Virus record (IMG/VR): IMGVR_UViG_3300028920_000052
Span: 1 to 64,000 of that record
DNA: 64,000 nt
Strand: one strand, 5' to 3'
Origin: a virus
Below the pieces are notes generated by a model. The model had not been told where the DNA came from. It did no database searches and worked only from the letters and a program-made list of their open reading frames with translations. Shown here in pieces: positions 3,001 to 49,445 of this stretch (positions are counted from its first letter, which is position 1; each line of letters opens with the position of its first letter). A program made the position numbers and the translations under genes.

Positions 3001-6000
3001 TATACTTCAATCTGAATCAGGAAAAGCATTAGATTTAAGATATAATTCTTACTTTTTAAGACAGCCTATTATTCAAGCCTATGTTAAAGAGTTAAGAAAT
3101 TTATCAGACTCTTTAAATACAGACTTTGTTCCAGATAGAAAAGAAGAAGCAATAGAGAGAGTTAAGGAACAGTTTAAAAGTAAACTAATTAATCCTGAGT
3201 ACCAAACTATAGGTAAATCTTATAGTCCTAATGAGTTATTAAAGTTATTAGAAATAACTGAAACTTCTAGTGAAACTTTTATTCAGGATCAATTAGAAAT
3301 ACTTGCACATTTTACAACTTTAGATACTATAGGTACAGAATTAGGTGAAATATTTACAGCATTATCTTCTGAAAGTAAGGGAGTAGGTAAAGGATATTGG
3401 GAAGCTTCACAAAGACAAGAGCAAATTTTTAAATTAGGTAAGAAAAGCCTAATACGTGGAGCAGAAGAATTAGTTGGAGATAATCAGAGTGGTAAAATTG
3501 CATCTTATGTTGGTGATGCTGTTAATATTTTATCTCAAATATTTCCTTATAATACTGAAGTGGTAAAAGGTATTATTAATGAAATTGAACTTGAGAATGG
3601 TAAAGATAGAGTGGATATTGAAATGAGAAAAGATATTTGGGAAGCACTTAAATCTTTCATATTTACAGATCCTCAGCTTGATACCACAGCGGAAAATAGA
3701 AATGATTTGTTTTATGGAGAAAATAGTGTAGCAAAACAACTAAATAAATTTTTAGAGACTAAAGAAGGTAAAGTAAATAAATTTGCTTTAAAACTTAAAA
3801 CCAAAGTAAACAACTCTAAAGGACTACCTGATATAATTACTTTTAATGCAGCTATTTCTGAAAGAACTGATGAACAAGAACTAGTAAAGTACTTTGTTGA
3901 TATGTTTACTAGTGCTAATGAAGAAACTAGAAATTTAGCTGAAAGGTTATTACAGTATGCATATGCTCAAGGAGGTATTCAACAGGCCTTACAGTTTGTT
4001 AAATATATTCCTACTCCTTATTTAAGTGCTACTAATTTTGGTAAAAGGTTAGAAGAAATATCTACATTACTAAAAGGAGAAAATGGAATTATAGACTCTA
4101 ATATATTTATTGAACAATTTTTTCAGCATAATCCTAATTTAGCAAGAAAACACAATGTAGAGAAAATAGGCAAAATTGCTAAAGAAGGTATAACTTTTAA
4201 TACAGAAAATGATAGACTAGCACATCTTAAAACTGTTAAAAATAACAAAGTTGTATTTGTAGATTATATTTCAATAAGAGATACAAGTAAGAATAAATGG
4301 ATATTACTAAAAAAAGTTGAGACTAACGGTAACAAATTAGTTTATAAACCTATTCCTTTAAAAGGTGGATTTGGTAAAAATTTTACAGCATATAATGAAT
4401 ATAATTTTAATGGGGAACAAGTTACATCAACAATACCTGAAAATAATCCAGAAGGAACTATTACACCTGTTGTTAAACCCAAAATAACACCTACTATAGA
4501 TACTACTATTGAAATAGGAGAAATATTAAACACAGAGTTTGAAAACATCAAAGCTTCTAAATATGTAGATGTGTTTAATGCTGAAGGAAAAGAAGCCTTA
4601 GATTTTGCATTATCACAGCTAGAAACTGATAGATATAAAGCATTGATACCCTTATTTACTAAAGAAAACTTATTTCCTAAGTTTAAAGTTATTTTAGATA
4701 ATAATCTTAAAGATAAAAATGGAAATATAATTAAAGGGAAAAGAAAAGGTGATACTATTATTATTAATCCTAAAGAACATAAAAGAATTGCGGATTTTTA
4801 TGGAAGAAAATTATCTAATGAAGATATTGAAAACACTTTAATCCACGAATTAGTTCATATTCCTACTGCAGATGCTTATAGAGCTTATAGATTAAAAGAA
4901 GAGCATCCTTTACTTACAGATAAAGTAAGAGAGAAGTTTAGAAATATTGATACCTTATTTATGGTAGCTTACAACAAGCTTTCAAAAGAGGATCAAAAGA
5001 AAATTGAATTAATTAGAAATAAAAAATTAGATGATTCTTCATTATCTGTAGAAGATAAAACTGGACTATATGGATTTACTAGCCCTACAGAGTTTATGGC
5101 TGAAGTTCTTACTAAAAAAGAATTTCAACAAAGATTAAATGAAATGTCCTTTAATTCTCAAAAAACTATTTGGGAAAGGTTTAAAGATTTAATTAGACAA
5201 GTTTACAATGAATTTATTAAAGGATTAGGATTTACTGTAAATGAGCAGAGTGTTTTAACAAATACTTTAGTTGAAGTTATTGATTTATTAGAAACTATTG
5301 GAAAAGATGAAAATGTTATTACGTCTAAAGTTTCAGAAATATATTCTCAATTAGGTAATAAAACTGAATCTGAAAATGTACATATTGAGCCTTGGAGTAA
5401 TTTAAAAAATGCTACAGAGGCTATTGTAAGTGTGGATGAAGATGTTTCAGCCCACATAGTTTCAACAAGAATTCAAGGAACTAATGAACATTTTGGTAAT
5501 CCTTTTAGTCATGCTCCTACTGGAAAAACACAAGGATTAATAAAAACAGAAACTATAAAAGAAGCTGTTGAGGCATATACTCAATGGATTATTCAAGAGG
5601 AAGATATTAGTTCTTCTTTTTATGAAAAGTATTTAAATAATATTAATTCTGATTTATATGATAATCTTCTTCAAAGAAGACAGTGGATTAGAGAACAACT
5701 TGAATCTGGAGAATTAAAAAATAAACCTATTTTTTATTATAAAGAATTGGGTCAACCTTCTCATGCTACTGCTTTAGATTATTTAATTAATAAATATGAT
5801 TGGAATACTAAAAATAAAAAAGAAGTAACTGATAAGGAACAAATACTTAAAGATAAATTAACAGGTAATATTGCTGATGATATAGATTTATCTATAAGCC
5901 CTTTAGTTGAAGGGTATGATAAAAATAAAGTTAATCTTGTATTTGGAGAAGAAGGACAAGTACAGTATGTATACGATGTAGTTAATAAAGTATTTAATAA

Positions 6001-7306
6001 TTTAAATAAAATAAATAACTGGGCTAAAGGTATTAAAAATGAAGATGTGTTATGGACTAAAATACAGAAAGATTTACAGATACCTTTAGAACAAATAGAA
6101 TTATTAAAAAATAGTAGGGGCAATACTATAGAAGAAAAACTATTAGATTTAGTTGGTAATTATGGTTATAGTGTTGAAGTTAATACTGCTAAAAACAAAC
6201 AAAAACAATTTGGTAGTTTTGAGGCAGAACCTGGAATTCCAATAGAAGCAATAATGCAAAATAGAAATGCAGCTGAAAGTGAAAAAGGAGAACCTACTAG
6301 TTATTATGCTAACTTAACAGTTCCAGGAGGTACTAACTATACTGAGAATGAAATATCTACTCCATTAATTACACCTTCTATTAAAGGACATGCTCAGTTT
6401 AGTACAGATAAAGGTATAGGTTGGTTTAGAAGTGATGAAAAAATCAGTAAAGAAGCAGAATATGTGGAAAAATTAGAGGATGAATATTTACCTTTTCCCA
6501 TGAAAACTAAAGAAGTTGAAGGTTCTAAAACTCGTAGAATACTGGAAATACAATCTGATTTATTTCAGAAAGGTAGAGATAGTAAAGAATTAGTTAGAGA
6601 AACTGGTTTAGAAACTATAGATTATGATGAGGAAGGTAGCCCATTACCTGCACCAATTTATAATGATACTAAAGGTAATCAATTTTTACAACTTCTAAAC
6701 AAAGACTCTAATTGGGTAACATTCTTTATTAAATCTATTGTGCAAGATAGTGCTAAGAAAGGATATGAGAAAGTATTATTTCCTAAAGGTGAAACTGCTG
6801 CTAAAATTGAAGGTCATCAAACTATTGCTGATGAGATAAAAGCTTTAGATACACGTATTGCTGGATTGAAACTTAGATTTAAAACTGATTTTGGCATAAT
6901 AGAACAAGGTAAAAATAAGGGGATGTGGTTTGGCTACGATAAACCATATAATAATAAATTACTTGCTGAAAGAAGCTGGACTTATGGTATTGAGCAATTA
7001 GAAAAACAAAAACAGAATCTTAAATCACAAGGTATAGAAAAACTTAAACCTATTGAAGCATTTTATGAGATTAGAGTAGGCAAAATATTAGAGAAACAAT
7101 TTGGTAAAAATAATGTTAAAACTATTACTGATGAATATGGAAATCAGTGGAGAGAAATAACTATTGTAAAACCAAAAGAAAATGTTACCTTTGAAGGAGA
7201 TTTAGGCATGTCAGTAAGTAAATATATGCAGACATTAACTAAAGAACAAAGAGAATTAATGAGAAAATTAATCAGCACAGGTCAGATAAAATTTAAGTGT
7301 GAGTAA
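2..7306 (+). CDS. Giant virion-packaged RNA polymerase (crAss-like vRNAP), probably 5'-truncated by the window, with extra C-terminal domains
   Basis: 2434 aa ORF. Catalytic GSDFDVDK (DFDVD at nt 2138-2152) preceded by GFRIPNQGHSS. Zincin motif HELVH at 4844-4858 with downstream EFMAE. Confidence 0.92.
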   Translation: MSDKTRSPIIEAPKFKFNLLTSGVQKDGTITKEALPFQVRNEVGNIVKAEAARIREIYGKIKEHTENGTLEEYKRNVGEQYFYGSQYFYLFPELNDIIWKDGVVDPTFLVGKQLEALIDSAMNSIVDVVNNTITQWQNDGTTKLDSKGKLEHQFNLSYVKEHISSYKGLNLAAFAAADLEINNFIFNANMLQIVQGDPALYYNTKWNKLSPREKVENTLKEYQKREAKDAAPGELGTTEWEIRDGNKVWRGNTHYTVQFVKDDGHGSLTDGYLQSLEAYTGKLDRTDAQEYTTVKEKITAIMNHGRIPDAIFISIMNKIDNAKDGYYELDGEELEFIMGPDKPVQIVREDIDGHEHTYYIKSSSFPLIPQFTKDTDLDKVRRAMESSGTDRIAFVSATKTGARNIVEVFDKEGNVKDGLDFKKTQSLLSRKGFSIQQDVPYDDTKHNITVVSQADRLLLQGLANVDFEYNGKNVKGKDLKKLKEKIRSNLMDMSREELFTKIGVKLTDDNKPYVADMNKFLEGIREEAIDRKWNINDVMSLNIVDGNVVVPLGFNNSAERIETLITSMFNKVIKQKINGKSLVQGSSSGLRNNVKTLEELTSKDKNGIVWIKGTDNDFNPQKGLTFIDSKSGKLAQVVLPWKYQAEMEKFLIPDTSMLDISKIDKELLNIVGFRIPNQGHSSQLSIQIVGFLPKNMGDLVLVPGEITKQMGSDFDVDKLYTYIFNHVVNDDGKLVKIPEFVTVEGDVDVDKLNKWVSKNFPTKINNLQKYTYYVKESKKEIQEGIDFISKLFQEENVETVDEVSVKKDVLKELGLTYEDINVPSRKFFKRAILQNAYIGIHLNVLSNPKVMKLMTEPLDAKDLEITGKKGAKIKEPKLFLSRQRQLEDFEIQQAGKKGVAIFSRAVVGLAMIEDYDIRLGTIVKKEEQPFDFIGFKDDKGNVITLNKLSGTGTSTFNGEIRSKIRNLIIQQSGAVDNAKTPVLDMNGLHSLLFNASIAMSILQSESGKALDLRYNSYFLRQPIIQAYVKELRNLSDSLNTDFVPDRKEEAIERVKEQFKSKLINPEYQTIGKSYSPNELLKLLEITETSSETFIQDQLEILAHFTTLDTIGTELGEIFTALSSESKGVGKGYWEASQRQEQIFKLGKKSLIRGAEELVGDNQSGKIASYVGDAVNILSQIFPYNTEVVKGIINEIELENGKDRVDIEMRKDIWEALKSFIFTDPQLDTTAENRNDLFYGENSVAKQLNKFLETKEGKVNKFALKLKTKVNNSKGLPDIITFNAAISERTDEQELVKYFVDMFTSANEETRNLAERLLQYAYAQGGIQQALQFVKYIPTPYLSATNFGKRLEEISTLLKGENGIIDSNIFIEQFFQHNPNLARKHNVEKIGKIAKEGITFNTENDRLAHLKTVKNNKVVFVDYISIRDTSKNKWILLKKVETNGNKLVYKPIPLKGGFGKNFTAYNEYNFNGEQVTSTIPENNPEGTITPVVKPKITPTIDTTIEIGEILNTEFENIKASKYVDVFNAEGKEALDFALSQLETDRYKALIPLFTKENLFPKFKVILDNNLKDKNGNIIKGKRKGDTIIINPKEHKRIADFYGRKLSNEDIENTLIHELVHIPTADAYRAYRLKEEHPLLTDKVREKFRNIDTLFMVAYNKLSKEDQKKIELIRNKKLDDSSLSVEDKTGLYGFTSPTEFMAEVLTKKEFQQRLNEMSFNSQKTIWERFKDLIRQVYNEFIKGLGFTVNEQSVLTNTLVEVIDLLETIGKDENVITSKVSEIYSQLGNKTESENVHIEPWSNLKNATEAIVSVDEDVSAHIVSTRIQGTNEHFGNPFSHAPTGKTQGLIKTETIKEAVEAYTQWIIQEEDISSSFYEKYLNNINSDLYDNLLQRRQWIREQLESGELKNKPIFYYKELGQPSHATALDYLINKYDWNTKNKKEVTDKEQILKDKLTGNIADDIDLSISPLVEGYDKNKVNLVFGEEGQVQYVYDVVNKVFNNLNKINNWAKGIKNEDVLWTKIQKDLQIPLEQIELLKNSRGNTIEEKLLDLVGNYGYSVEVNTAKNKQKQFGSFEAEPGIPIEAIMQNRNAAESEKGEPTSYYANLTVPGGTNYTENEISTPLITPSIKGHAQFSTDKGIGWFRSDEKISKEAEYVEKLEDEYLPFPMKTKEVEGSKTRRILEIQSDLFQKGRDSKELVRETGLETIDYDEEGSPLPAPIYNDTKGNQFLQLLNKDSNWVTFFIKSIVQDSAKKGYEKVLFPKGETAAKIEGHQTIADEIKALDTRIAGLKLRFKTDFGIIEQGKNKGMWFGYDKPYNNKLLAERSWTYGIEQLEKQKQNLKSQGIEKLKPIEAFYEIRVGKILEKQFGKNNVKTITDEYGNQWREITIVKPKENVTFEGDLGMSVSKYMQTLTKEQRELMRKLISTGQIKFKCE

Positions 7307-7307
7307 T

Positions 7308-10300
7308 ATGAAATGTAGAATAACAGAAGCAGCAGATCCTAGATTAGTAGAGCTTATTGAAAAATATGGACAATCTAAGGGACTTGAAATATATGTGGAT
7401 GAAAAAGGTACTGGAATTCCTTATAAAGAGCCTTCTCCTGAAATAGAATCAGAGCCTGTATTTGTTCCTTATGAAAAAGCTATAGTTCATTTAAAAGGTC
7501 AATTAAGGCTGGAACAAAGAAGATTAGATGACTTAAAATCTAAAACTTCTGTTGAAGATAATCTTGAAAAAGCTAAATTGCATGAACATAGTAGAGAGTT
7601 AAAAGAAAAAATTGAAGAGTTGGAGAATTCCCAGGATTTAGATACTCTTATAAATATTGCTAATTTACAATTAGACTGGGTAGTTAGTTTATTTAATAAA
7701 GAAAATTTCCATCCTGCAGAATTAAATGAAGCTAAAAGAGTTATAGAGTTGTGGTATGATATTAAAACTATACTTTACGGTGAAGGAGTTGAAAGAGATG
7801 CTTTAGATGAAAGAGTGATTGAGAAATTTGATGCTTTAAGAGCTAGAATAGATTCTGAAGGTATAACAGATAGACTATTTAACATTAATGCAGAATTCTT
7901 AACTAAGCAGGCAGGTTATTTAAGTACTTCTGAATTTCTTAAAGAACTTTATAAATTAAAAGACTTGGATAAAGGTACAGAATTTGGTAGATGGCTAGGT
8001 GCTACAGGTACTAAATATCTGACTGTTCTGGATAAAATGAATAGAGATGCTGCTGTTAGAGTGGATCAAATAATGAAAAGTTGGAGTCAAAGAATTAAAG
8101 ATGTTTTGGCTCCTATTAAAAAAAGGGGATTAGAGAGCCTTTTATGGCAAGTAGATAAAGATGGGAACCCAACAGGTAATATGACTAATAGATATTCTCA
8201 AACTTGGTATGATGCTAGAAAGGCAGCGTATAATGCATTGAGAAAAAGTATAACTAATCCTAAATCTACTACTACTAGCAGAAACAACGCTTATAAAAAA
8301 CTAACTAAATTTCTTAAAGATAATACTGTTACTGTAGATATGAGGTATTTTATTGATAGTAAATACGAGTCTAGAGAGGGTGTTACTAAGGAAATGCACA
8401 TTGAATATCTTAAAGAGCAGTTTGGAGAGGTTAGAGCTAATGAAATTATAGAACAAGCAGCAGAGTCTTATCAAAAATATTTAGAGAATTTAGAAATAAT
8501 TAAGAGGCTTAATGAAGAAAAAGTAGAAACTGGAGAATTAAGTTCTGAACAGGCTACTATGATAGTATCAGAATGGGTAGATAAAAATAGTCCTATAGTT
8601 TGGTTAGAACAACAAGATGCTCCCATAGAAGGTCAAACAAAGAAATTTACTCAATCTACTTTTAATAGATTTGTTGTTAATAAACCTAAGAAAATAATTG
8701 AAGGTAAAAAAACTGAATGGTATGATGCTAACTATGAAAGAATAGAGAATGATAAAGAATTATTAGAAGCATACAATACTATAAGGGAATTTATGGATGA
8801 GATGATGTCTTATTTACCTCAACATATTAGATCAGATATACAAGCTAACTTCTTACCTAGAATAAAAAGAGAATTTGTTCTTGCTATGAATGCAGAAGGA
8901 CTTAAAGGTGCTGTAGCTGGATATGGTGAAGACTTTATTAATAGTATGACTTCTACGGCTGGAATGGAGAATAGATTTTTAGAAGAAAATGAGATAGGAC
9001 AATTATATAAAAGTATACCTACTAAATTTACATCTCCAATACCAGTGGATGAAAGAAGTAGAGATTTAGAAAAAATTCTTCCTATGTTTGGTACAATGGC
9101 TCTTAACTATAAGTATAAAAGTGAAGTACAGGATAGAACAGAATTAGCACATAAATTTCTGCAATCTATTGCTAAAAGTAAACAACGCAAAGAATATACT
9201 ACAAATGAATTAAATAATACTCTTGAAACTATAGAGTGGTTTATGGATTCTCAACTATTTGAGAAGACTAAAATGGATGAAGGGGTAACTAGCATTAAAA
9301 CCTTTAAAGGAAATACTTTTGAAATAGTTAATCAAGATAAAGCAGAAGAAATAGAAAAGGCTTTTAAAAAATTAAGAAAATCTAATGATGCTGATACTGC
9401 TGTTAGACTTCTCAAAGAGATGTTTGGGAATGATATAAAAGTAATGAAGGTTAAAGAAAGATATAAACAACTAGTAGAAAAAAGAGATGAGATTGAGGAT
9501 AAACTGTATAATGATGAAATTACTCAAGATGAATATGAGAAATTAATTAAACCTCTTGAAGATGAAGCTAACGGTCTTGGTAGAAACTTAGTAATGTCTA
9601 AAGTTGCAGATAAGTTAATGAGGTATAATCAGGCTATGGCATTTTGGTTTAACCCTTTCTCAGCATTTAATAACTATATGTTTGGTGTTCTATCGAATTT
9701 AACTTGGGCAGCAGGAAAAACAGATTTTAATCCAAAACAAACTATACAAGCTTTTGGATTAATGTGGAAATCTGCATTGAATTTAAAAGATGGTAAGTTG
9801 GATAAGGCTACCAATTTAATTGCTAAATTTAATCTTCTTTATGAAAATTTAGAGTATAACAGTTCAGATACACAAAATGAAACATTGAAGAAATTAAAGG
9901 CTTTTCCTTATGTACTACTTAGGAAAGGAGATTTATTTATCAAAGGGCAGACTATGATTTCTATTATGTTAAATAAAAAAGTTAATGTAGTTGAGAATGG
10001 TATAGAAAAAGAAATAAGTTTATGGGAAGCTTTTGATGATAGTGGTGAATGGAATGTGGAAAGATTTGGAGAAAATAAAGAATGGAGGGGAGATTGGACT
10101 AATCCTGAAGATAATAAAGCTTTTCTAGACTTTAATAGATATGTAAATAAGATAGAAATAAAGTTGCATGGTAACTTTGATCCTAATGCATCCCCAATGT
10201 ATAAAAAATATGTACTAACTAGAATGTTAGCACAATTTAGAGCAAGTTGGATGATAGAAGGTATTGCACAAAGATTTGAAAGTAGAAAATTTGATGATGA

Positions 10301-36330: not shown

Positions 36331-39300
36331 TTATTTGGTCCAGTAATCACTAACACTGCAATCAGCAACTATAGGTATTGTTTTGATAGATTCTTGTGCA
36401 GCTTGTATCATTAATCTTTCTAATACCTTACTCCATTCTTCAGCAAAGTCTTCTCTACATTCAGTCTGTATTTCATCATAAATACTTAATAGGATATATA
36501 CAGGGTAGTTATGTTTATCAATTTCATTTTGAACTAGACATAAAGCTCTCTTAATAATATCTCCATTTGTCATTTTTGTTATCCTAAAGGCTCTTTATCC
36601 TTTAGTTCTATAGGTTCTTCATTTCCTATAGTTCGGACTATATCATTAATATTTAAATAATTTATAATATTTTCTGTAAAAATGTATAATTGTTCTATAG
36701 TTGCAGAATTTTTCATAGTATTGGCTAAAGTACTTATAACTTTAACATTCCCTTGTATATATCCTTTAGTATTATCAATTCTATCTAAAGATGGTGAATT
36801 TTGATAATTTCCTTTTGTACCTGTAAATAAAGGTATTTTCAGAATTGGGCATATTTCAGGAATTACTATATCATCTAATGTTATATCAAAAAGAATATCT
36901 TTTTTCAATGCACGTATTTGGGCATTTTTTAATAAACGCTTAGCCACATATCTAGGATATCTTTCTCGTTGTTTATTATTTACATTTTCCCGTATAATAC
37001 TGTCGTCCATTCTATCTTTATAATACTTGCGCTTATTAATATTAACTTTTTCTTTATTTTCACGTCTGTATTTATTTAAATATGCTTTACGTGAGTTATT
37101 ATAACATTTTTTGCAACAAGACATATACGATATTTTACCTTTATATTCACCAACTTTATAAAAATCAATTAAAGGCTTAATTTCGCTACATTTTTTACAT
37201 TTTTTCATAGTATCTACATTAGTTTATTTACTAATGTAAATATAATAAAATTATTTGAATATTATTCCATTTTCGTGGGAAAAATATACTCCTATAATTT
37301 ATAGGTATCATTTCCTAGTCTCTGCACCTTCAAAAATATTACTATTTAAGCTTGGCTCAAGATTGGCATCTCAGCTTTCCTTGAATTTATGGAATTTAGA
37401 CAGGGCACAATTTAGCATCTACCCTGTATCGGACTATTTTTACTTTTTCTTTCAATACTACCTAAAGATTTATAATCTTCTTTATTTAAAGAAAGATTTT
37501 TATAATTTTTAAAATAAGATTTCCACTCAGGAAAATATCTTAGTCTTCTATATGGAGCACCTGTTCTAATATATCCTCTTGTTTTACCTAATTCTCCTAA
37601 ATGCACTAGAAATGAATATACTTGTGATACTCTAGAAAAGAAGGTTTTAATAAGTTTTTTAGCATCATCTACTGATACTTGTATTGTATCTGCTAACTTA
37701 TATTCTGACATTCCAAAAGCCAATCCAAAATTTATAGTCTTTTGTACATCTCTGTATGTAAATGTAGGTTTTGGTGGAAATGGTTTTTTTACATCCTTTA
37801 TAGGAATATTAAATGTCATTGCACATAGTTTAGAGTGCAAATCTTCCCCGTTCTTAAACGCATTAACCCAGGTTGGATCTTGGCTGAATTCTGCTATAAT
37901 TCTGAGTTCCATCAACAGGTTTTCTTCCTGCTGGACTTTATCTTAACCATATACAATTATATTGTACTTAGGTAATCTCCGTTAAGTCTCTACACCTTCC
38001 TTATTTCACACAAGGCTTGGCTCGGTATTCCCAACGCTGGTTCACCGAATTTGAAGATTTTGTACTTTAAATGTTTCCAAATAAAGAGGCATATAATCTG
38101 TTATATTTTCTTTCTAGATAAACAGATGCGTTTTTGTATATTAAATTATATAAAGAAGCTATGTCTTTTTTAGAATATATTCCTATTATGTAAATACTAT
38201 CTTTTCTACAAGAAACTGTACAATGAATATTATTTTGGGTAAACCACTCTACAAGTTGATTCTTAAATTCTACAGATTGGGTAGCAATTTCAGTCCTACC
38301 AGTAGTTTTTCTAATAAACCCATCTCCATCTATTACTCCTCTAATAAAAGAAGGTGATAGTGAAATATTCATTTTAATAGTTTTACTTTTTCTGGGAGTT
38401 ATTCCAAGATTTCTCAAGAATAAATTACAAGATTTATTTTTGAATACGACTCTATATTCAATAGAATTAAACTTTTTACTAAAAACTGTTCTTATAGGTA
38501 CCTTTGAAAATTTTGAATACTTTTTTATATGTTCTAAATCTTTTTCTTGTAATCCTAAAGATACTACATATTCTTTATCTCCTATAGTTCCATCAGAAGC
38601 AAGCATACCTAACCAATATTGCACTTCTTCATTTTCTAAATCTAAAAATGGATTAAGTACTTTACTTTGAGCTTCTGATTGATTTCTTGGAATTATTCTA
38701 TTTCTTAATAATATTCTTCTAATAGTAGTATTATAAGTTTTTAACTCTAAAGCTAATTGTTTCGTAGTCTTACCCTGTAAATATTCTTTAACTATTTGTT
38801 CTTCATTATATTTTAACATACGTATAATTATTGATTCGGCAATATATACCACAATAATCATACCAATTTTTATCTTCTACCGCTGTAGTCTCCACCAACA
38901 ATTTTATATCCTTCTCTAGGTATAAAAGCACTTCTAATTTCTTTACCAAATTCTCCATGTGAAGGGATTTGATTTAGGTTAGGTTCTGATACTGAGATTC
39001 TTCCAGTTGCCAATATTTGCCATACATTATAATGAACTCTTTTAGTAACAGAATTTATATGTTTTAAAAAGTTCATACCAAAAGCATCAGCAAGTTTATT
39101 ATGTTTACTGTAATTTATTAATAGGGAAACTAATGAATGGCTAAACTTATTTTTTTGCAGTATTCTATCTCCTACAGAGTCAATTTTTAATCCTAATTCT
39201 CTTAATATTTCTAATTTCTGTTGATTTGACTTCCAATTTATGTAAGTATCTCTTTCTGTATTATCAAAGAAAAGATTTCCTTGTTTATATATTGTACAAT

Positions 39301-40060
39301 ATTTAGTTAAAGCATTAGTATTCGGTAAATCTTTAGTACCTAATTTATAAATTAAAGTATCCATTTCTTTTTCTACATCATCTCTAATTTTTGAAGCTTT
39401 AATTGCAACATTTTTCCATTTATCAGTGTCTACTCTAATCCCAGTGTACTCCATCCTAGCAAATACTTTTACTACTTCATTTTCTAAATTTAATGTGTTT
39501 TCTAACCCTAAAGTTTTTATTTTTGGCAATTGTAAGTCTTTGATTTTACCTAAATACTTTACATCATTACATCCATAAACTATTACTCTATCTGATAATC
39601 CTTCAGAATGTATTTTTCCTCTTATTTCTTTATCTAATTCAACATTAAGGTACTTCTTTGCTATACCTTTTAAACTTACATCTCTTTCTTCATCTGAATA
39701 TCCAGTAGTTAGAATGCATTCAGCAAGAAATGTATCATAAATATTTTCTACAACTAGATTATTATGATAAAGAAATTTTAAATCAAATTTTGCGTTTTGA
39801 AATAAAAATAACTTAGACTTATCTGCAAATAAAGGTATAAAAACTGAAGAATCTATACTACTCCAATCAATAAAAAATTGATTATCATAATCTCCTAATT
39901 GTAAAGATATTACTCTTTTAGTATAAGGGTCAAATCCTTCAGTTTCTGTATCTACTCCTATTTCTTTTAAACTATTACAATATTCAAGACAATCTTGAAT
40001 ACTTGCTAGTTTTATATCTTCATTTTCAATTCTTTTTTGATTACTGACTAAGTATATCAT
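36331..40060 (-). CDS. polA: Family A DNA polymerase, spliced: exons 40060-38879, 37912-37421 and 36570-36331 (637 aa)
   Basis: Exonuclease motifs DTET, NAKFD and YGCND. Joining exons restores motif A (DYSG|MELRIIA) and NSPIQG|TNGDIIK. Motif B KTINFGLAFG and motif C IYDE. Confidence 0.92.
36571..37420 (-). mobile_element. Group I intron 2 in the DNA polymerase (850 nt)
   Basis: Exon ends CAGGGU with P1 partner GCCCUG; P/Q AAAUUCAAGGAA and AAUCUUGAGCCAAG; R GCAGAGACUA; S GAUAUAGUCC; terminal G before ACA AAT GGA. Confidence 0.92.
36579..37208 (-). CDS. Intron-encoded HNH-like homing endonuclease
   Basis: CKKC...CKKC, CPIL and SLDRIDNTKGYIQGNV...N motifs; 3' end overlaps the intron P7'/P9 region. 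Confidence 0.85.
   Translation of the reverse strand: MKKCKKCSEIKPLIDFYKVGEYKGKISYMSCCKKCYNNSRKAYLNKYRRENKEKVNINKRKYYKDRMDDSIIRENVNNKQRERYPRYVAKRLLKNAQIRALKKDILFDITLDDIVIPEICPILKIPLFTGTKGNYQNSPSLDRIDNTKGYIQGNVKVISTLANTMKNSATIEQLYIFTENIINYLNINDIVRTIGNEEPIELKDKEPLG
37913..38878 (-). mobile_element. Group I intron 1 in the DNA polymerase (966 nt)
   Basis: Exon ends ...AGCGGU; core AAAUUCGGUGAA, AAUACCGAGCCAAG, GUAGAGACUUA and AAGAUAAAGUCC; ends CCUGUUG before ATG GAA CTC. Confidence 0.92.
38067..38819 (-). CDS. Intron-encoded LAGLIDADG homing endonuclease with N-terminal HTH
   Basis: YWLGMLASDG and FIRGVIDGDG motifs, C-terminal LERK. Confidence 0.9.
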   Translation of the reverse strand: MLKYNEEQIVKEYLQGKTTKQLALELKTYNTTIRRILLRNRIIPRNQSEAQSKVLNPFLDLENEEVQYWLGMLASDGTIGDKEYVVSLGLQEKDLEHIKKYSKFSKVPIRTVFSKKFNSIEYRVVFKNKSCNLFLRNLGITPRKSKTIKMNISLSPSFIRGVIDGDGFIRKTTGRTEIATQSVEFKNQLVEWFTQNNIHCTVSCRKDSIYIIGIYSKKDIASLYNLIYKNASVYLERKYNRLYASLFGNI

Positions 40061-40461: not shown

Positions 40462-40496
40462 AGTTATTCTTTGGTTTAATCATACCTACTAGGTAG

Positions 40497-40811
40497 TTAG
40501 CGTCCAGTTTGCCATTGTTCATTGCAATCATCACACTCAAATGTATTCTCGTTTACCCAATAATAAACTAATTTACTTCCGCATCTAGGGCAAACCGTAC
40601 CCTTACCCACAGGCTCAACGCTCTCGCTAACAGCGGGTATAGAACAGTTTTTTAACCCTGCTTTTACCAATGGAATTAAGCCATCAACAATTTTGGTCAA
40701 ACTTTCTCTTGGTATATATTCATATCCTGTTTCATTCTCTGGCATATATTCATACACTTTGTGTTTCCAAAATTGTTTATCCAAATAATCTACTATTTTA
40801 TCTCTATTCAT
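40497..40811 (-). CDS. Cassette-borne protein with C-terminal Zn ribbon
   Basis: CPRC...CDDC; the stop codon is the complement of the GTTA core. Confidence 0.65.
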   Translation of the reverse strand: MNRDKIVDYLDKQFWKHKVYEYMPENETGYEYIPRESLTKIVDGLIPLVKAGLKNCSIPAVSESVEPVGKGTVCPRCGSKLVYYWVNENTFECDDCNEQWQTGR

Positions 40812-40859
40812 ATTTCTACTTTTAAGTCGTTAAAAAACCGATTCCATACCTGAGTACCG

Positions 40860-41072
40860 TTAGCGGTAATACTGGTTTAACGCTAAGTTTCGTTCGCAAA
40901 ATGCACATATCTTTTTATGTTGTTTACTAAACACAACATATTTACATCTATCGCAAGGGTCTTCATCATTTTCTGTCAGAGTAGGTGTTCCATATTTGTA
41001 AATGGAAGTACTACCGCTAACAATGCGTATAATCCATTGCTTGCATTCTGCTAATTTGTTAAGTATCTTCAT
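40860..41072 (-). CDS. Cassette-borne small Cys protein
   Basis: CDRC...CAFC; the stop codon is the complement of the GTTA core. Confidence 0.55.
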   Translation of the reverse strand: MKILNKLAECKQWIIRIVSGSTSIYKYGTPTLTENDEDPCDRCKYVVFSKQHKKICAFCERNLALNQYYR

Positions 41073-41349
41073 TTTATAATTTTTAGTTGTTAATTAAAGT
41101 TTCGGCTATTAAACGCAACGTATCATACGCTCACCGTTGTGGTGCATTAAAACGTTCGCTCCGCCACCACAACATGCAATATACTGCATGGCTTTGTAGT
41201 GGCTTCGATTAAACGTCTGTGCCAATTTACCGTAATTAAACATTTTTATATCGCACAAATAAATATTTCCAATGCCTTTGTCCAGTATCGTCAAACACAT
41301 AATGCATCTAATCCGCAACTAATCTTATACAAACCGTTATGCGTAATAG

Positions 41350-41592
41350 CTATAACTTTTCCAATTGTCCTATACAGTGTTTCAAACACATTAAATTCCA
41401 TTCTTTCCAATACCTAGCATCCTCTTTATTTGTTTTTATTACAGTTCTTAAAGTTCCATTTACGTATTTAATCAAACCTTTAGGTTCGCTACTACGCATA
41501 ACACCGTATAAAACAAATAGCTCTTTATCTGCTTGTTTTGGTGTTATTTTACCTTCTGCAACTTTCTGTAAAATTTTAATTCTATTTTTCAT
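41350..41592 (-). CDS. Cassette-borne small protein
   Basis: N-terminus ILQKVAEGKITPKQADKEL; starts inside the loop of the last attC-like site. Confidence 0.55.
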   Translation of the reverse strand: MKNRIKILQKVAEGKITPKQADKELFVLYGVMRSSEPKGLIKYVNGTLRTVIKTNKEDARYWKEWNLMCLKHCIGQLEKL

Positions 41593-41661
41593 ATCTCGCT
41601 ACTTGTCTTATACATCAACGTTATGGCTCAATCCCTCCTGCAATTTACAAACATTTTCATA

Positions 41662-41702
41662 TAAAAAAAATAAGCCCTACACACATTACTGTATGTAGAG
41701 CT
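41662..41702 (-). terminator. Intrinsic terminator upstream of the cassette array
   Basis: Minus-strand hairpin GCTCTACATACAG-TAA-TGTGTGTAGGGC followed by a T tract. Confidence 0.6.
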
Positions 41703-41718
41703 ATATTTAGTTTATGGT

Positions 41719-45921: not shown

Positions 45922-46499
45922 CTTGTATTACTACAAGCAAGGCATATTAAAACAGATAGTTGTAGCTATCACTCTTTTATGAGTTGTTATAATATGCTGC
46001 CACTACAATAATAGGAATAATTTCTGTACCTATTGATTAAATAGGCTATTATTGCTTTATACTTCTCTACCAATTATGAGGCTAATCTCAACAGCTAATA
46101 ACTGCTTTATTGGTATGAAGATATTAAATAAGTGAAATTGGTAGCTTTTTATAGTTTTTATTTAAGCCACTCTACTCTTCTGTTAGCACTGCCAATATTC
46201 ACTTATATTATCAAATAGTTTGTAATTATGTGGCTACGTCACATACCTCTTTAGACTTCCATAGGCTATATTACAAACTTCCATTACTGGTTTGATAATT
46301 TGTAAAAACTCTTTCTATCCACAATGCTAACTGTAGAATATAATTAAACGTAGGCTCATCTCTACTATGGGTTTGTACACCAAGTTTTATTATTAATTAT
46401 ATCTTACCTCAGACAACATTCTGTTAGCTTAAAATTAAATAGTAGGTGTCGCAACTGTTTTATCCTAGTATTTTTATCTGCATTCAGTAGAAAGAGTTT
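45922..46499 (-). ncRNA. Tiled array of multibranched structured RNA modules (cluster 1)
   Basis: One hairpin plus six abutting stem-closed domains in an ORF-free stretch; GUAA tetraloops on the minus strand. Confidence 0.6.
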
Positions 46500-46507
46500 A
46501 GTTAGTT

Positions 46508-46893: not shown

Positions 46894-47241
46894 TTATTCA
46901 CTTTCTTTCTGTCCTTCCCGTTCTACTTTAGACACCATTCCACTACTAGTTCTAAAAACAGCATTACCACATTTTATTTTAATATCTTGTAAGTAAACTA
47001 TTTTTGTGTTCCTTGTAAAGGAAGGATCTATTGCTATTTTATTGGTTATATTAACTTTTAAAACTATACAATCAATAAATTTAAGTTTTTTGTGTATTCC
47101 TGTAAGTTTTGGATAAGAAAAGACAATATGACATTTTTTTTCTTCATGTGTTAATGCAGAACCATCTATTAATCTTACTATATCTCCTACTTTTATAGTA
47201 GGGTCAATATAATGTTTAATTGTTGCTGTAAAAGTTTCCAT
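46894..47241 (-). CDS. Hypothetical early protein
   Basis: 115 aa; CTAACCTAA leader motif upstream. Confidence 0.65.
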   Translation of the reverse strand: METFTATIKHYIDPTIKVGDIVRLIDGSALTHEEKKCHIVFSYPKLTGIHKKLKFIDCIVLKVNITNKIAIDPSFTRNTKIVYLQDIKIKCGNAVFRTSSGMVSKVEREGQKESE

Positions 47242-47315
47242 TATAATAAGTTTTTAGGTTAGTATTAGGTTAATCCACTCTGTATTTATCAGGGCTTGTG
47301 ACCTGCTATCATAAG

Positions 47316-47498
47316 ATAGGCTACATTAGATTATGTTATATATATTTGATGTGTCAAATAATAGTGATGTTGGAAAAAGGGGAAAAAGGTATAAGTGGTA
47401 ATAGAGCCACATACTTACACCTTTATTTCTCAAACATTTTCAAGCATTTTCAAACAATTTACTTGATACATCAAATACTTTTGAACAAAATGTCCTAT
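47316..47498. repeat. Long imperfect inverted repeat (about 180 bp)
   Basis: Nested arms TATTTGATGTGTCAA/TTGATACATCAAATA and AAAGGTATAAG/CTTACACCTTT. Confidence 0.65.
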
Positions 47499-47530
47499 AT
47501 ATATAAAGGTATACATTATGTTAAATAGAA

Positions 47531-47966
47531 ATAAACTCTCACAAGGTTGCACCTTGAAGATATGCACCAAAACACCTTATAGATAGCTCCGAACCCTTTA
47601 GGTATTATACTGGAGATAGTGCATTATTAGCTATAAGTTCCTGCAATTGGATGAGAGTTTATCAGAAAAATACTGTAAATTCATGGGAATCAGCTTTACT
47701 GCCTAGATTAAGACAGACCCAAGTATCCTTTATTAATATAAGCTGCGAAACCTATAAGCCCCTTTAAAGATAAAACTAGGTAAAGGCATTTTACAGTATA
47801 AGAAAGAAACACTCAAACTGTATAGTACATAAGGAAAAACATTAAAAACCCTTATAATACAACAGTAAGAGTGTTGTGAATATTTAAAAGGTACACAACT
47901 CCACTAATCCTGCGCACTACTCTATCACTATATTTCTCTGTATATAGTAGTGGAATTGCGTACCTT
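47531..47966 (-). ncRNA. Tiled array of multibranched structured RNA modules (cluster 2)
   Basis: Four abutting stem-closed domains; A-C mismatches on + become G-U pairs on -. Confidence 0.6.
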
Positions 47967-47995
47967 ATATTATGTCTAATAAAAAAAGAACTAGC

Positions 47996-48241
47996 CTAAT
48001 AGGCTAGAACTTTCAGTGGTGAGCCATCCTTGGCAGCTCTTACTTCCCCAGTTTCTGCATCTACCATATCAACTATGATAAATCCATCAGGGATTGGAAA
48101 CTCTTCCCCTTCCTTGATACCTTCAGGTAATGCAGTCTTAGGGATATAAACTGGAGTTGCACTGAATACAAATGCATTAGCCTTAATCATTACTAATGCA
48201 GATTTTTCCCCACGTAGGGAATGGAATTTAGCAAGTGCCAT
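47996..48241 (-). CDS. First gene of the early block, hypothetical
   Basis: 81 aa, higher GC, CTAACCTAA leader motif upstream. Confidence 0.7.
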   Translation of the reverse strand: MALAKFHSLRGEKSALVMIKANAFVFSATPVYIPKTALPEGIKEGEEFPIPDGFIIVDMVDAETGEVRAAKDGSPLKVLAY

Positions 48242-48520
48242 AATTTTGAGTTATTAGGTTAGACAATTTGATGGGGGCTATATCCCCCTTGCTAGAAGTT
48301 AGTGGGGGTTATTGAGTAGATACATCATATTTTCGTCAATGAAAAAAATTTAAAAAAAAATTATAAAAAAAATATTTTTTACATTTTTATTAATGATGTA
48401 TTTTTGCATCATAAAGTATGAATATTGTACTTAATGTTGAATATTTGCTACTTTAACATAAAGGATAAATTTGAGAAAAGTATTAAAATTTTTAAATTTT
48501 CTAAAATTTTTACTAAAATA

Positions 48521-48552
48521 TTTGGAATTGTCAGAAGTATTGTTTTACTTTG
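48521..48552 (+). promoter_or_regulatory. Bacteroidota sigma70-type promoter upstream of the ncRNA candidate
   Basis: TTTG-N20-TTACTTTG. Confidence 0.6.
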
Positions 48553-48558
48553 CACAAT

Positions 48559-48885
48559 ACTTCCCAAAGCTCAGGACTGTTCACGAGTTGATCCTGGTCC
48601 ACAAGCTGAGGGCATGAATACCCTCTGAGGTAGCCAAAGTAAGAGGAGAACAGGGCCAAGTAGATGCACTCTTGAAATAATAGAGAAACATAGTGTTAAG
48701 GAAGTCCTGTAGTATGAAAGATGATACATAGCAATGTGTAAAGGAGATAAAGGCTAGGGTGAGATTGAGATGCCTCTCTACAATTTAAAAGTTGGACGGG
48801 ATAACCAAGACGGCGCATTGTGAAAGTTGAAATTAAGTAGGAAGCCTGAAAACCTAGTTTTCTCAGGAAGTTTTCTATTTAAATA
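48559..48885 (+). ncRNA. Candidate structured ncRNA of about 320 nt
   Basis: Relatively GC-rich, no convincing ORF, follows a promoter. Stems CAGGACT/AGTCCTG, GAGGG/CCCTC and TACATA-GCAA-TGTGTA; terminal hairpin. Confidence 0.55.
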
Positions 48886-48970
48886 AAAGGTAATTAATCA
48901 CTTAATTCAAAACACTTATTGTTAAGTTTTAACAAAGGGAAGGAAAAGTTGTAAAATTTTTCCTTTTTTA

Positions 48971-49002
48971 TTTGGATATTATGCGTAAGTTACATATCTT
49001 TG
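48971..49002 (+). promoter_or_regulatory. Bacteroidota-type promoter
   Basis: TTTG-N20-TATCTTTG. Confidence 0.7.
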
Positions 49003-49025
49003 TTTAGAACTAAAATTAAAATGAT

Positions 49026-49445
49026 ATGAAAGATAGAAATTTAAAACATAGTGATAATTGGGCCACTCCAAGAGAATTTTTTGACAAATTAAACAAAGAA
49101 TTTAAATTTGATTTTGACCCTTGCCCTCTACACAGTACATTTGATGGGCTAAAAATTGAATGGGGTAATTCTAATTTCATCAATCCCCCATACTCAAAGA
49201 AATTAAAAGAACAGTTTGTTATAAAAGCTATTGATGAAAGTTTAAAAGGTAAATTATGTGTGATGTTACTACCAGTATCCACAAGTACAAAATTATTTCA
49301 CCAACATATTTTACCCAATGCTAAAGAGATAAGATTTGTGGAGAAAAGAATAAGATTTTTAGGAATAAATACCAAAGGGGAATACGTTACAAATAAAACA
49401 CCAATGCATGATAGTATGGTAGTTATATTCGATGGTAGAAATTAA
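49026..49445 (+). CDS. Phage DNA N6-adenine methyltransferase
   Basis: DNWATP, FDFDPC and FINPPYS motifs. Confidence 0.85.
   Translation: MKDRNLKHSDNWATPREFFDKLNKEFKFDFDPCPLHSTFDGLKIEWGNSNFINPPYSKKLKEQFVIKAIDESLKGKLCVMLLPVSTSTKLFHQHILPNAKEIRFVEKRIRFLGINTKGEYVTNKTPMHDSMVVIFDGRN

Follow-up and report, generated by a model that had tools for sequence, protein, structure and literature searches.

A probable orphan array of gene cassettes in a crAss-like phage and its relation to an integron-like system of Bacteroidota phages

The IMG/VR virus record IMGVR_UViG_3300028920_000052 is 97,595 bp long, has a CheckV completeness of 99%, and encodes a family-A DNA polymerase similar to the enzymes of two crAss-like phages, IAS virus and cr111_1. 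Its first 64,000 nucleotides (nt), hereafter the window, were analyzed because an earlier note had described an integron-like array of inverted repeats and small open reading frames (ORFs) at positions 40496 to 41626, which lie within a minus-strand block of early and replication genes. We find that the stretch 40497–41620 is probably an orphan array of four gene cassettes belonging to an integron-like gene-swapping system of Bacteroidota phages that uses a Xer-like recombinase. The array is called an orphan because both the recombinase and its docking motif are missing from this phage: no tyrosine recombinase was detected in the 97.6-kb genome with Pfam PF00589 or with a family profile of the linked recombinase, and the docking motif does not occur there above control. 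Most likely, the array is inactive unless a recombinase acts in trans.

This reading rests on the enrichment of similar stems beside one recombinase family, on the junction between such arrays and the docking motif, on unit borders that are limited to the cores in near-identical phages, and on the window's own units, which recur in other records. In the mechanism that we propose, the recombinase would cut and rejoin the folded sense strand at AA↓C (arrows mark junctions), as the integron integrase IntI does at attC sites, and a second, inner breakpoint at the GTT core would recombine N-terminal (A) and C-terminal (B) protein modules. Given that the recombinase and the docking motif are absent, the cassettes of the window were probably acquired earlier or through a recombinase provided in trans by a co-infecting phage or by the host, and they would now behave as ordinary small early genes.

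Architecture and strand-specific stems of the array

Read on the minus strand, a unit consists of an A hairpin, 5′-(T)GTATA..//..TATAC-3′, with a start codon in its loop, followed after 1–2 nt by a B stem, 5′-TGTTAR..//..YTAACG-3′, which encloses the rest of the ORF (Table 1). The second arm of the B stem is the ..YTAAC end of its own unit, and the site on the gene-sense strand runs from the ..YTAA↓C unit end through a short spacer, the A hairpin, and a 1–2-nt spacer to the (T)GTTAR start of B. Read on the plus strand, the same sequence has the classical cassette plan of TTRRRY, body, RYYYAAC (R″), L″, loop, L′, and G. Inverted R″/R′ cores flank A1 (CGCTAAC..GTTAGCG), A2 (TACCGCTAAC..GTTGTGG), and A4 (GCATAAC..GTTATGG), and the corresponding sites measure 241 nt (40625–40865), 131 nt (41012–41142), and ~133 nt (41494–41626), with unequal spacers of 1–2 versus 4–5 nt. 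Units C1, C2, and C4 are complete with respect to the A/B plan, and C3 is partial. All three array genes lie on the bottom strand, start in a site loop, and end at the first bases of the cassette, with the stop codon of each located in or at the right arm of B.

The array is flanked on one side by the intrinsic terminator of the upstream gene and on the other by a 134-residue gene that abuts the polymerase. None of the array stems is followed by a T-run, and the only clear intrinsic terminator, at 41663–41705, is outside the array. Rfam, which has no attC model, returned nothing relevant for the whole window at gathering thresholds or for the array region at E ≤ 10, and neither did a transfer RNA scan.

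Most of what the earlier note reported from the letters was borne out. The complementary cores that it quoted are all in place, and the array of four units was confirmed. Its three AAC..GTT palindromes are the A1, A2, and A4 hairpins, and the arm mismatches are, as it said, A–C on the plus strand and G–T on the minus strand. Three ORFs (ORF1, ORF2, and ORF4) do start inside loops, and the two said to use the complement of GTTA as their TAA stop codon are ORF1 and ORF2. Each gene also fits within one unit, measured from the TT.. to the ..G of G↓TT cores on the plus strand.

Table 1. Coordinates of the cassettes, cores, stems, and ORFs of the array (window numbering)
Feature	Position	Strand	Description
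Cassette C1	40497–40859 (363 nt)	minus	TT..G on plus; G↓TT cores at 40496/40497 and 40859/40860; carries ORF1; A1 and B1
Cassette C2	40860–41136 (277 nt)	minus	G↓TT cores at 40859/40860 and 41136/41137; carries ORF2; A2 and B2
Cassette C3	41137–41336 (200 nt)	minus	Gene-less or decayed; 38-nt mini B hairpin and an A-left arm without a good partner
Cassette C4	41337–41620 (284 nt)	minus	Carries ORF4; 88% identical to contig L029, flanks unrelated
First core pair	40496 / 40625		GTTAGCG / CGCTAAC
Second core pair	40859 / 41012		GTTAGCGGTA / TACCGCTAAC
Third core pair	41136 / 41165		GTTGTGGTG / CACCACAAC
Fourth core pair	41336 / 41488		GTTATGCGTAATAGC / GCTACTACGCATAAC
A1 hairpin	40637–40850	minus	L″/L′ equivalent; arms 40850–40829 / 40656–40637; ORF1 start codon (40811) in loop
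A2 hairpin	41026–41129	minus	Arms 41129–41113 / 41040–41026, 9+6 bp; ORF2 start codon (41072) in loop
A3-left arm	41314–41331	minus	TGTATAAGATTAGTTGCG; similar to A4-left; no good right arm
A4 hairpin	41505–41614	minus	Arms 41614–41598 / 41521–41505; 17 bp, 3 G·U; ORF4 start codon (41592) in loop
B1 pairing	40496–40631	minus	GTTAGCG/CGCTAAC, only 7 bp; alternative 18-nt pairing, 78% complementarity, 40606–40589 / 40513–40496
B2 stem	40856–41024	minus	Arms 41024–41007 / 40873–40856; 18 bp, 3 G·U, 133-nt loop; extended R-box pairing of C2
B3 mini-hairpin	41136–41173 (38 nt)	minus	GTTGTGGTG-20 nt-CACCACAAC; 'empty' B module
B4 stem	41335–41503	minus	Arms 41503–41488 / 41350–41335; 16 bp, 2 G·U, 137-nt loop
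Distal core	41620–41626	plus	GTTATGG; array end; next is the upstream gene's intrinsic terminator (41663–41705, minus)
ORF1	40497–40811 (104 aa)	minus	N-terminal module and C-terminal zinc ribbon; stop is TAA of core
ORF2	40860–41072 (70 aa)	minus	CxxC..CxxC motif; stop is TAA of core
'ORF3'	41109–41318	minus	Doubtful ORF
ORF4	41350–41592 (80 aa)	minus	Weak SHOCT-like N-terminus

A scan of all 64 kb for perfect stems that enclose 20–260 nt, with G·U (G·T) pairs permitted, gave nine stems of at least 16 bp on the minus strand, four of which are inside the 760-nt stretch of the array, and none of this length on the plus strand. Only two stems of at least 15 bp that are anchored by GTT..AAC occur in the 97.6-kb genome (41021–41007/40873–40859 and 41502–41488/41350–41336), both in the array, compared with a mean of 0.27 per genome in block shuffles. 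Because of these counts by strand, their clustering, and the comparison with block shuffles, we conclude that the repeats of the array are real and strand-specific.

These data bear directly on whether the repeats are chance inverted repeats in AT-rich DNA, or selfish repeats of the repetitive extragenic palindromic (REP) or miniature inverted-repeat transposable element (MITE) type that are unlinked to gene mobility. The first core pair spans just 7 bp, and AT-rich phage DNA contains many imperfect repeats of 12–13 bp, as this explanation would predict. However, the clustering, strand specificity, and anchoring statistics of the stems make chance very unlikely, the arms differ among units yet pair within each, and an identical architecture is present in hundreds of contigs. 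We therefore regard this explanation as extremely improbable.

Related units, their borders, and a linked recombinase

Units of the window are found in unrelated surroundings in other records. Positions 41614–41321 (C4) are 88% identical in nucleotide sequence to positions 2979–3273 of the viral contig L029, and the flanks are unrelated. The two sequences become similar at the A-left arm and lose their similarity shortly past the B-right arm, and both contexts have TAAC, 4–5 nt, and TGTATAAGA at both borders. The A4 hairpin of L029 carries one arm change, by which the pair is kept as a wobble. ORF4 is a real gene: the two copies differ by 16 synonymous and 10 nonsynonymous codon changes, and the differences are distributed over the three codon positions as 9/2/17. 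The shared sequence TGTATAAGA was also considered as a promoter, a candidate that was rejected because it is not enriched in the window (41 matches versus 45.6 expected).

Near-identical copies of the 38-nt B3 mini-hairpin occur in seven other records; those in L001, L003 (two copies), L004, L005, L006 (two copies), and L008 represent Nonlabens phage P12024L, four IMG/VR contigs (two with two copies), and one Ignavibacteriales metagenome-assembled genome (MAG). The hairpin is intergenic in most of these records, its identity ends at TGTT.. and ..AACG, and the copies include one compensatory pair (GTTGTAGTG/CACTACAAC). More generally, A and B stem types are found on the coding strand of the unrelated viral contigs L003–L006, L029, L032, and L033, and also in the Polaribacter phages described below. 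The stem arms vary between copies in those contigs, and the termini alone are conserved. The A-left arms of the window (TGTATAAGGTTAGTAGCG) and of the Polaribacter phage cassettes (TGTATAAGACAAGTAGCG) are alike.

The 20-nt loop of B3 contains GCGAAGC (GCGGAGC in the window) and CGTTTTAATG and is shared by the copies in L001, L003–L006, and L008. GCGAAGC is a classic, very stable GNA mini-hairpin. The CGTTTTAATG loop also closes gene-less mini-sites of both A type and B type in L032 and L033 as well as the published site P12002L_attC1. Empty modules may carry this loop by default, or a protein may bind it. A role for B3 as a mimic of clustered regularly interspaced short palindromic repeats (an RNA anti-CRISPR) was considered and rejected because the 30-nt core of B3 occurs in only 1 of 185,579 bacterial species genomes scanned, and there in a single copy.

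Near-identical phages gain, lose, and reorder units mainly at ..AAC↓, the outer core, which corresponds to AA↓C on the gene strand. The Polaribacter phages Freya_1, Freya_5, Freya_8, and Freya_10 (MT732463, MT732467, MT732470, and MT732472) encode a relative of the linked recombinase with 36% identity. Their flanks are 99.2–100% identical, and the compared regions differ only by small-gene blocks directly upstream of this integrase. Relative to Freya_1, Freya_10 has an extra 4,921 nt between ..TTTACAAC↓ and ACCCCTATAAC.., and the insert ends with ..GCTAAC↓. The array of Freya_5 ends at ..TTACCAAC↓ACCCC.., and Freya_8 is missing a block of ~900 nt that has ..AAC↓ on both its sides. The junction ends beside the integrase are TTTACAAC↓, TTACCAAC↓, and TTGCTAAC↓, each followed by ACCCCTATAAC.., and all Freya junctions that were compared fall directly behind the AAC of the gene strand (G↓TT when read on the opposite strand).

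The contigs L004 and L005 share three blocks with 98.6–100% identity whose order is different. Blocks Y and Z extend from ..AAC↓G to ..CTAACG↓, and block X extends from CTAAC↓G to ..TATACACAT-TGTT↓, that is, to the inner GTT core. Thus, the G↓TT borders anticipated by the earlier note for gain, loss, and reordering of units in related arrays are seen in the Freya isolates and in blocks Y and Z, with additional breakpoints at the inner core; the comparison of C4 with L029 agrees with them to within ~10 nt.

The Freya phages comprise ten sibling isolates (Freya_1 to Freya_10, MT732463–MT732472; loci L133–L140) with genomes of 43,978–48,920 bp. The paper describing them reads the integrase as an indication that the phages may be temperate; the words 'integron' and 'cassette' are absent from it, and the differences in small-gene blocks are not discussed there (PMC8776804).

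In the Ignavibacteriales MAG (L008), B3 is located 85 nt upstream of a gene for a 273-residue tyrosine recombinase, and in L004 it is located 4 kb upstream of a relative of this gene. The relatives in L032, L033, and L004 lie directly downstream of dense A/B arrays on the same strand, with stems of up to 28 bp; L031 has a few such stems upstream of its recombinase, and L005 retains only a broken recombinase fragment. A profile search of one collection identified 339 viral contigs that encode this recombinase family. For the best 80 of the 339 contigs, the density of GTT..AAC stems of at least 11 bp is 1.18 per kb on the sense strand upstream of the recombinase, compared with 0.15 per kb on the antisense strand upstream, 0.10 per kb on the sense strand downstream, and 0.07 per kb on the antisense strand downstream, an upstream enrichment of 8- to 17-fold. 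Two or more such stems are present in 49 of the 60 loci whose upstream sequence spans 1 kb or more.

The 212 distinct B stems found upstream of recombinases have a median length of 15 bp and loops of 15–447 nt. T precedes GTT in 79% of them, G follows AAC in 60%, and the A-type motif tatAt is present 6–9 nt ahead of GTT. ORFs cross the GTT at 118 of the 212 stems, wherein GTT is a valine codon in 73 cases and the TAA of TAAC is a stop codon in 26. The layout of these ORFs matches that of ORF1, ORF2, and ORF4, and the genes are likewise on the bottom strand. In most loci, a docking motif, ..YTAAC↓TAT(T/A/C)ATATATA, is found 40–60 nt before the recombinase start codon; the motif type by which we define the platform is ..TAAC↓TATTATATATA, and the arrays join it exactly after ..AAC. 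When the gene-antisense strand is taken as the top strand, the divergent recombinase comes first, then the docking site, G↓TT, and the cassettes, which is the layout of an integron with its genes inverted.

With 266–273 residues, the recombinase is 40–70 residues shorter than IntI. Its best NCBIfam match is NF040815 (XerA, 'integron integrase'), with 175–213 bits and thus below the cut-off of 220, and the IntI model TIGR02249 yields 157–179 bits versus a cut-off of 265, with the match in two stretches. The best solved relatives are XerA (4A8E) and then IntI4 (VchIntIA, 2A3V), and the alignment to 2A3V stops at residue 181, ahead of the IntI-specific insertion. From these comparisons, the linked enzyme is related to Xer, XerA, and IntI and lacks the defining IntI insertion, a feature that Smyshlyaev et al. 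(2021) described as 'not fully conserved' in an integron-like subgroup.

Two loci contain further features near recombinases. In L144, an Ignavibacteriales MAG locus (G005:C1:338500-353300), a second 273-residue ORF lies on the other strand (8517–9338), upstream of the recombinase that follows the B3 copy, and there are a few B-type stems with loops of >1 kb, such as TGTTGGCGGTAGTGTA..TACATTACCGCCAACG at 6171–7345, with genes on the other strand. Larger cassettes may be arrayed at this locus, in the chromosome or in a prophage; no clean chromosomal array was found around L008. In L030, a 441-nt element occurs twice (1413–1853 and 4526–4963; 97.5% identity) upstream of a related recombinase, and it carries nested perfect palindromic stems (TAACGCTTCGGGC/GCCCGAAGCGTTA and CGTTAAGGAAAATG/CATTTTCCTTAACG) of a site type unlike the A/B units.

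Chimeric proteins and other features of the phage genome

The proteins of two cassette families are chimeras, apparently joined at the in-frame GTT (valine) of the inner core. The zinc ribbon of ORF1 matches PF12760 with 27.4 bits (cut-off 25.4). No relatives of ORF1 were found in the viral collection. Its N-terminal 60 residues, up to ..CSIP(A/D)V, are joined to at least six unrelated C-termini, and its zinc-ribbon C-terminus is joined to other N-termini. The relatives of the ORF1 N-module in metagenomes are distant, and no such cores were seen at their junctions. Homologues of ORF2 are 59–87% identical to it, and its C-module, VSGSTS.., is found with three kinds of N-terminus, the join being at V–S (GTT AGC). 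'ORF3' is probably not a gene; its frame does not use GTT as a codon and crosses a unit border.

It is possible, although we hold this idea only tentatively and consider it rather doubtful, that the inner GTT core with its in-frame valine is a second regular crossover, such that the recombinase both moves genes and joins N- and C-terminal modules. If true, the domains of small phage proteins would be shuffled in frame and at specific sites: N-terminal modules encoded in the site loop would be combined with interchangeable C-terminal modules encoded in the cassette body, which would make the process a prokaryotic counterpart of exon shuffling.

Among the closest crAss-like relatives of the window by DNA polymerase (≤49% identity), none has the cassette genes in common with it, and these relatives therefore offer no synteny test. 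The polymerase gene itself is split (36579–40060, minus strand). Its first part, 38870–40060, encodes the exonuclease and the N-terminal portion of the polymerase and ends at motif A (..GGDYSGRR, followed by a stop codon). This part is followed by a 264-residue LAGLIDADG-type ORF at 38067–38861, and the polymerase resumes at 37412–37915, which corresponds to Pfam profile positions 162–303. The split is probably due to an intron with a homing endonuclease. Region 36579–37208 has no family match and may be a second interruption. A short hairpin that resembles the A type, GTATGATTATTG..CAATAATTATAC, is located at 38863–38822, exactly at the polymerase break.

The longest stem of the window (47888–47966, minus strand; 19 bp with a 41-nt loop, AAGGTACGCAATTCCACTA / TAGTGGAGTTGTGTACC TT) lies within an ORF-poor strand-switch region (47241–49026). 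On the minus strand at 46100–46500, ~400 nt are devoid of ORFs of at least 90 residues and include a B-type-looking stem, GTTAGCATTGT / GCAGTGCTAAC, at 46331–46182 (11 bp, 128-nt loop). This region could be a decayed cassette remnant or a noncoding RNA.

Alternative explanations and comparison with known systems

Several observations weigh against the cassette reading. The phage of the window has neither the recombinase nor a docking motif above control. The strand that folds is the mRNA strand, and stems that depend on G·U pairs therefore fit a role in RNA equally well. Folding isolated sites as single-stranded DNA yields z-scores that are weak (−2.5 and −0.6) and, with DNA parameters, a minimum-energy fold from which A4 is absent, although A4 forms with RNA parameters. 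A2 is present in the minus-strand fold and absent from the plus-strand fold. The 7-bp B1 pairing is at chance level if taken alone, and the A hairpin of C3 is mismatched. The borders between C4 and L029 are known to ~10 nt only, and the 5-nt spacer differs. Units are also found without a recombinase in L003, L006, L029, and the complete genome of Nonlabens phage P12024L. Finally, in the proteins P0028 and P0035 the break coincides with the inner edge of the B arm rather than with GTT, which means that not every event maps to one point; breakpoints fall partly at GTT and partly at the inner B-arm end, and no single strict crossover point accounts for all of them.

Some of these observations are expected if the stems are sense-strand RNA structures that act in stability, processing, or translational control, while the units are shuffled by homologous or microhomology recombination at short conserved boundaries in the manner of the promoter early stem-loops (PeSLs) of T4-type phages. 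The A stem would then surround the ribosome-loading region and the start codon, and the B stem would close the 3′ part of a small mRNA. Such roles agree with stems that contain G·U pairs and are confined to the transcribed strand, that form when the whole region is folded as RNA and only weakly with DNA parameters, and in which start codons are always found in the loop of A and stop codons within or next to the right arm of B; the many unit-bearing phages without a recombinase fit as well. PeSLs consist of sigma-70 promoter and terminator motifs and are thought to operate via homologous recombination (Arbiol et al. 2010, PMC2839356; Comeau et al. 2014, PMC4122927), and both PeSL shuffling and mini-circles have been documented in T4-type phages (PMC2839356). 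PeSL cassettes resemble the present units in that small early ORFans in hyperplastic regions are accompanied by repeated stem-loops and are shuffled as modules between related phages. However, the boundary here comprises 4–6 nt (AAC(G) and (T)GTT), a length insufficient for homologous recombination, yet the borders in near-identical phages fall there. The stems span parts of genes, and the arrays are linked to a tyrosine recombinase: they are enriched upstream of one recombinase family to the extent given above and directly adjoin the conserved docking motif. Moreover, mini-units that hold no gene, the 38-nt hairpin among them, are both conserved and mobile. We therefore judge RNA structure combined with PeSL-like shuffling to be an unlikely explanation of the array, noting that RNA-structure and cassette explanations are not mutually exclusive.

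The earlier note had instead proposed that the phage uses a host IntI on attC sites. A classical cassette carries its ORF on the top strand, upstream of its attC. The phage system shares with classical integrons the order of recombinase, docking site, and array, with the recombinase divergent from the top-strand direction; the cassette plan TTRRRY-body-R″-L″-loop-L′-G with a crossover at G↓TT on the top strand, equivalent to AA↓C on the bottom strand; and stems that form on the bottom strand only, with each cassette start complementary to its own R″. It differs in that its recombinase lacks the IntI insertion and scores below the IntI model cut-off, its genes lie on the bottom strand and start inside the site loop, it has a second, inner-core breakpoint, and it is borne by phages. 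The R-box pairing of classical integrons spans 7 bp, whereas that of the phage system spans 15–28 bp (15–18 bp in the window), with L stems of 15–22 bp. Its site loops reach hundreds of nt, unlike those of attC, whose total length of 57–141 nt can be compared with the window sites listed above. The integron logic seen by the earlier note therefore holds with respect to the cassette array and the bottom-strand-specific folding but not with respect to classical attC geometry, given the long R-box pairing, the inverted genes, and the starts within loops.

Phage arrays of attC-like sites have been described before. In the sections of Qi et al. (2023, PMC9892861) considered here, clusters of attC sites lacking integron integrases (CALINs) are reported from virulent phages, including Polaribacter phage P12002L, and the sites are treated as bacterial-type attC and tested with IntI1, which recombined one of the two P12002L sites tested. 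These CALINs resemble the present array in that units with GTTRRRY/RYYYAAC cores are arrayed in a phage without an integrase. The site P12002L_attC1, given there as TGCTAAC-GGCTAC-GGCTAAACGG-TCGTTTTAATG-CCGTTTTAGCC-AT-TGTTAGGCG, has the same plan and the same TCGTTTTAATG loop as the mini-sites of L032 and L033, and B3 of the window has the related CGTTTTAATG loop; according to the same sections, this attC1-type site was not recombined by IntI1. A dedicated phage recombinase, a docking site, extended R-box pairing, inverted genes, and in-frame cores are not reported in those sections. The array of the window has four or five sites and no integrase, and its membership among CALINs hinges on whether the sites qualify as attC.

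If the sites were true attC served by a host IntI, the fit of the cores to GTTRRRY/RYYYAAC (e.g., GTTAGCG/CGCTAAC), the R″-L″-loop-L′-R′ order, the bottom-strand bias, and the two site lengths of ~131–133 nt would be readily explained, as would the recombination of one P12002L site by IntI1. Nevertheless, the P12002L site that shares the plan and loop of the present units is the one that was not recombined. The extended R-box pairing, the inverted genes, and the loops that contain gene starts also depart from attC, and the linked enzyme falls below the TIGR02249 cut-off, with an alignment to 2A3V that ends before the IntI insertion. The 30-nt core of the mini-unit is, as noted above, almost absent from the bacterial species genomes scanned. 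A search of the remaining genome yielded no IntI, in line with the earlier note, which had seen none in the window; its proposal that a host IntI runs the array found no support, with no IntI or other tyrosine recombinase in a 99%-complete genome and a linked enzyme of Xer/XerA type. We consider classical integron cassettes to be a distinctly improbable explanation.

Xer-type enzymes resolve dimers or integrate whole elements, and to our knowledge they do not run multi-cassette arrays. Xer proteins act on folded single strands in other settings, such as XerCD on the attP(+) hairpin of CTX phage, and archaeal XerA provides a further comparison. The linked recombinase best matches the XerA type, and a folded-strand substrate for it is plausible. 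We found no paper describing a phage cassette platform with a Xer-like recombinase in the literature searched.

In the usual view, integrons belong to bacteria and IntI is their defining enzyme. Here, a smaller, Xer-like recombinase seems to operate a platform with the logic of an integron, which is widespread in Bacteroidota phages. Such a platform would provide a testable mechanism by which phages gain and swap the small early ORFans that dominate their accessory genomes and that likely function in host takeover and anti-defence. Cultures exist of the Freya, Ingeline, and Leef phages and of their hosts, which makes excision, insertion, and strand choice directly testable, and the Freya siblings constitute a ready experimental system for the cassette mechanism. 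The window shows cassettes of this kind in a crAss-like phage as well, in the form of a probable orphan array.

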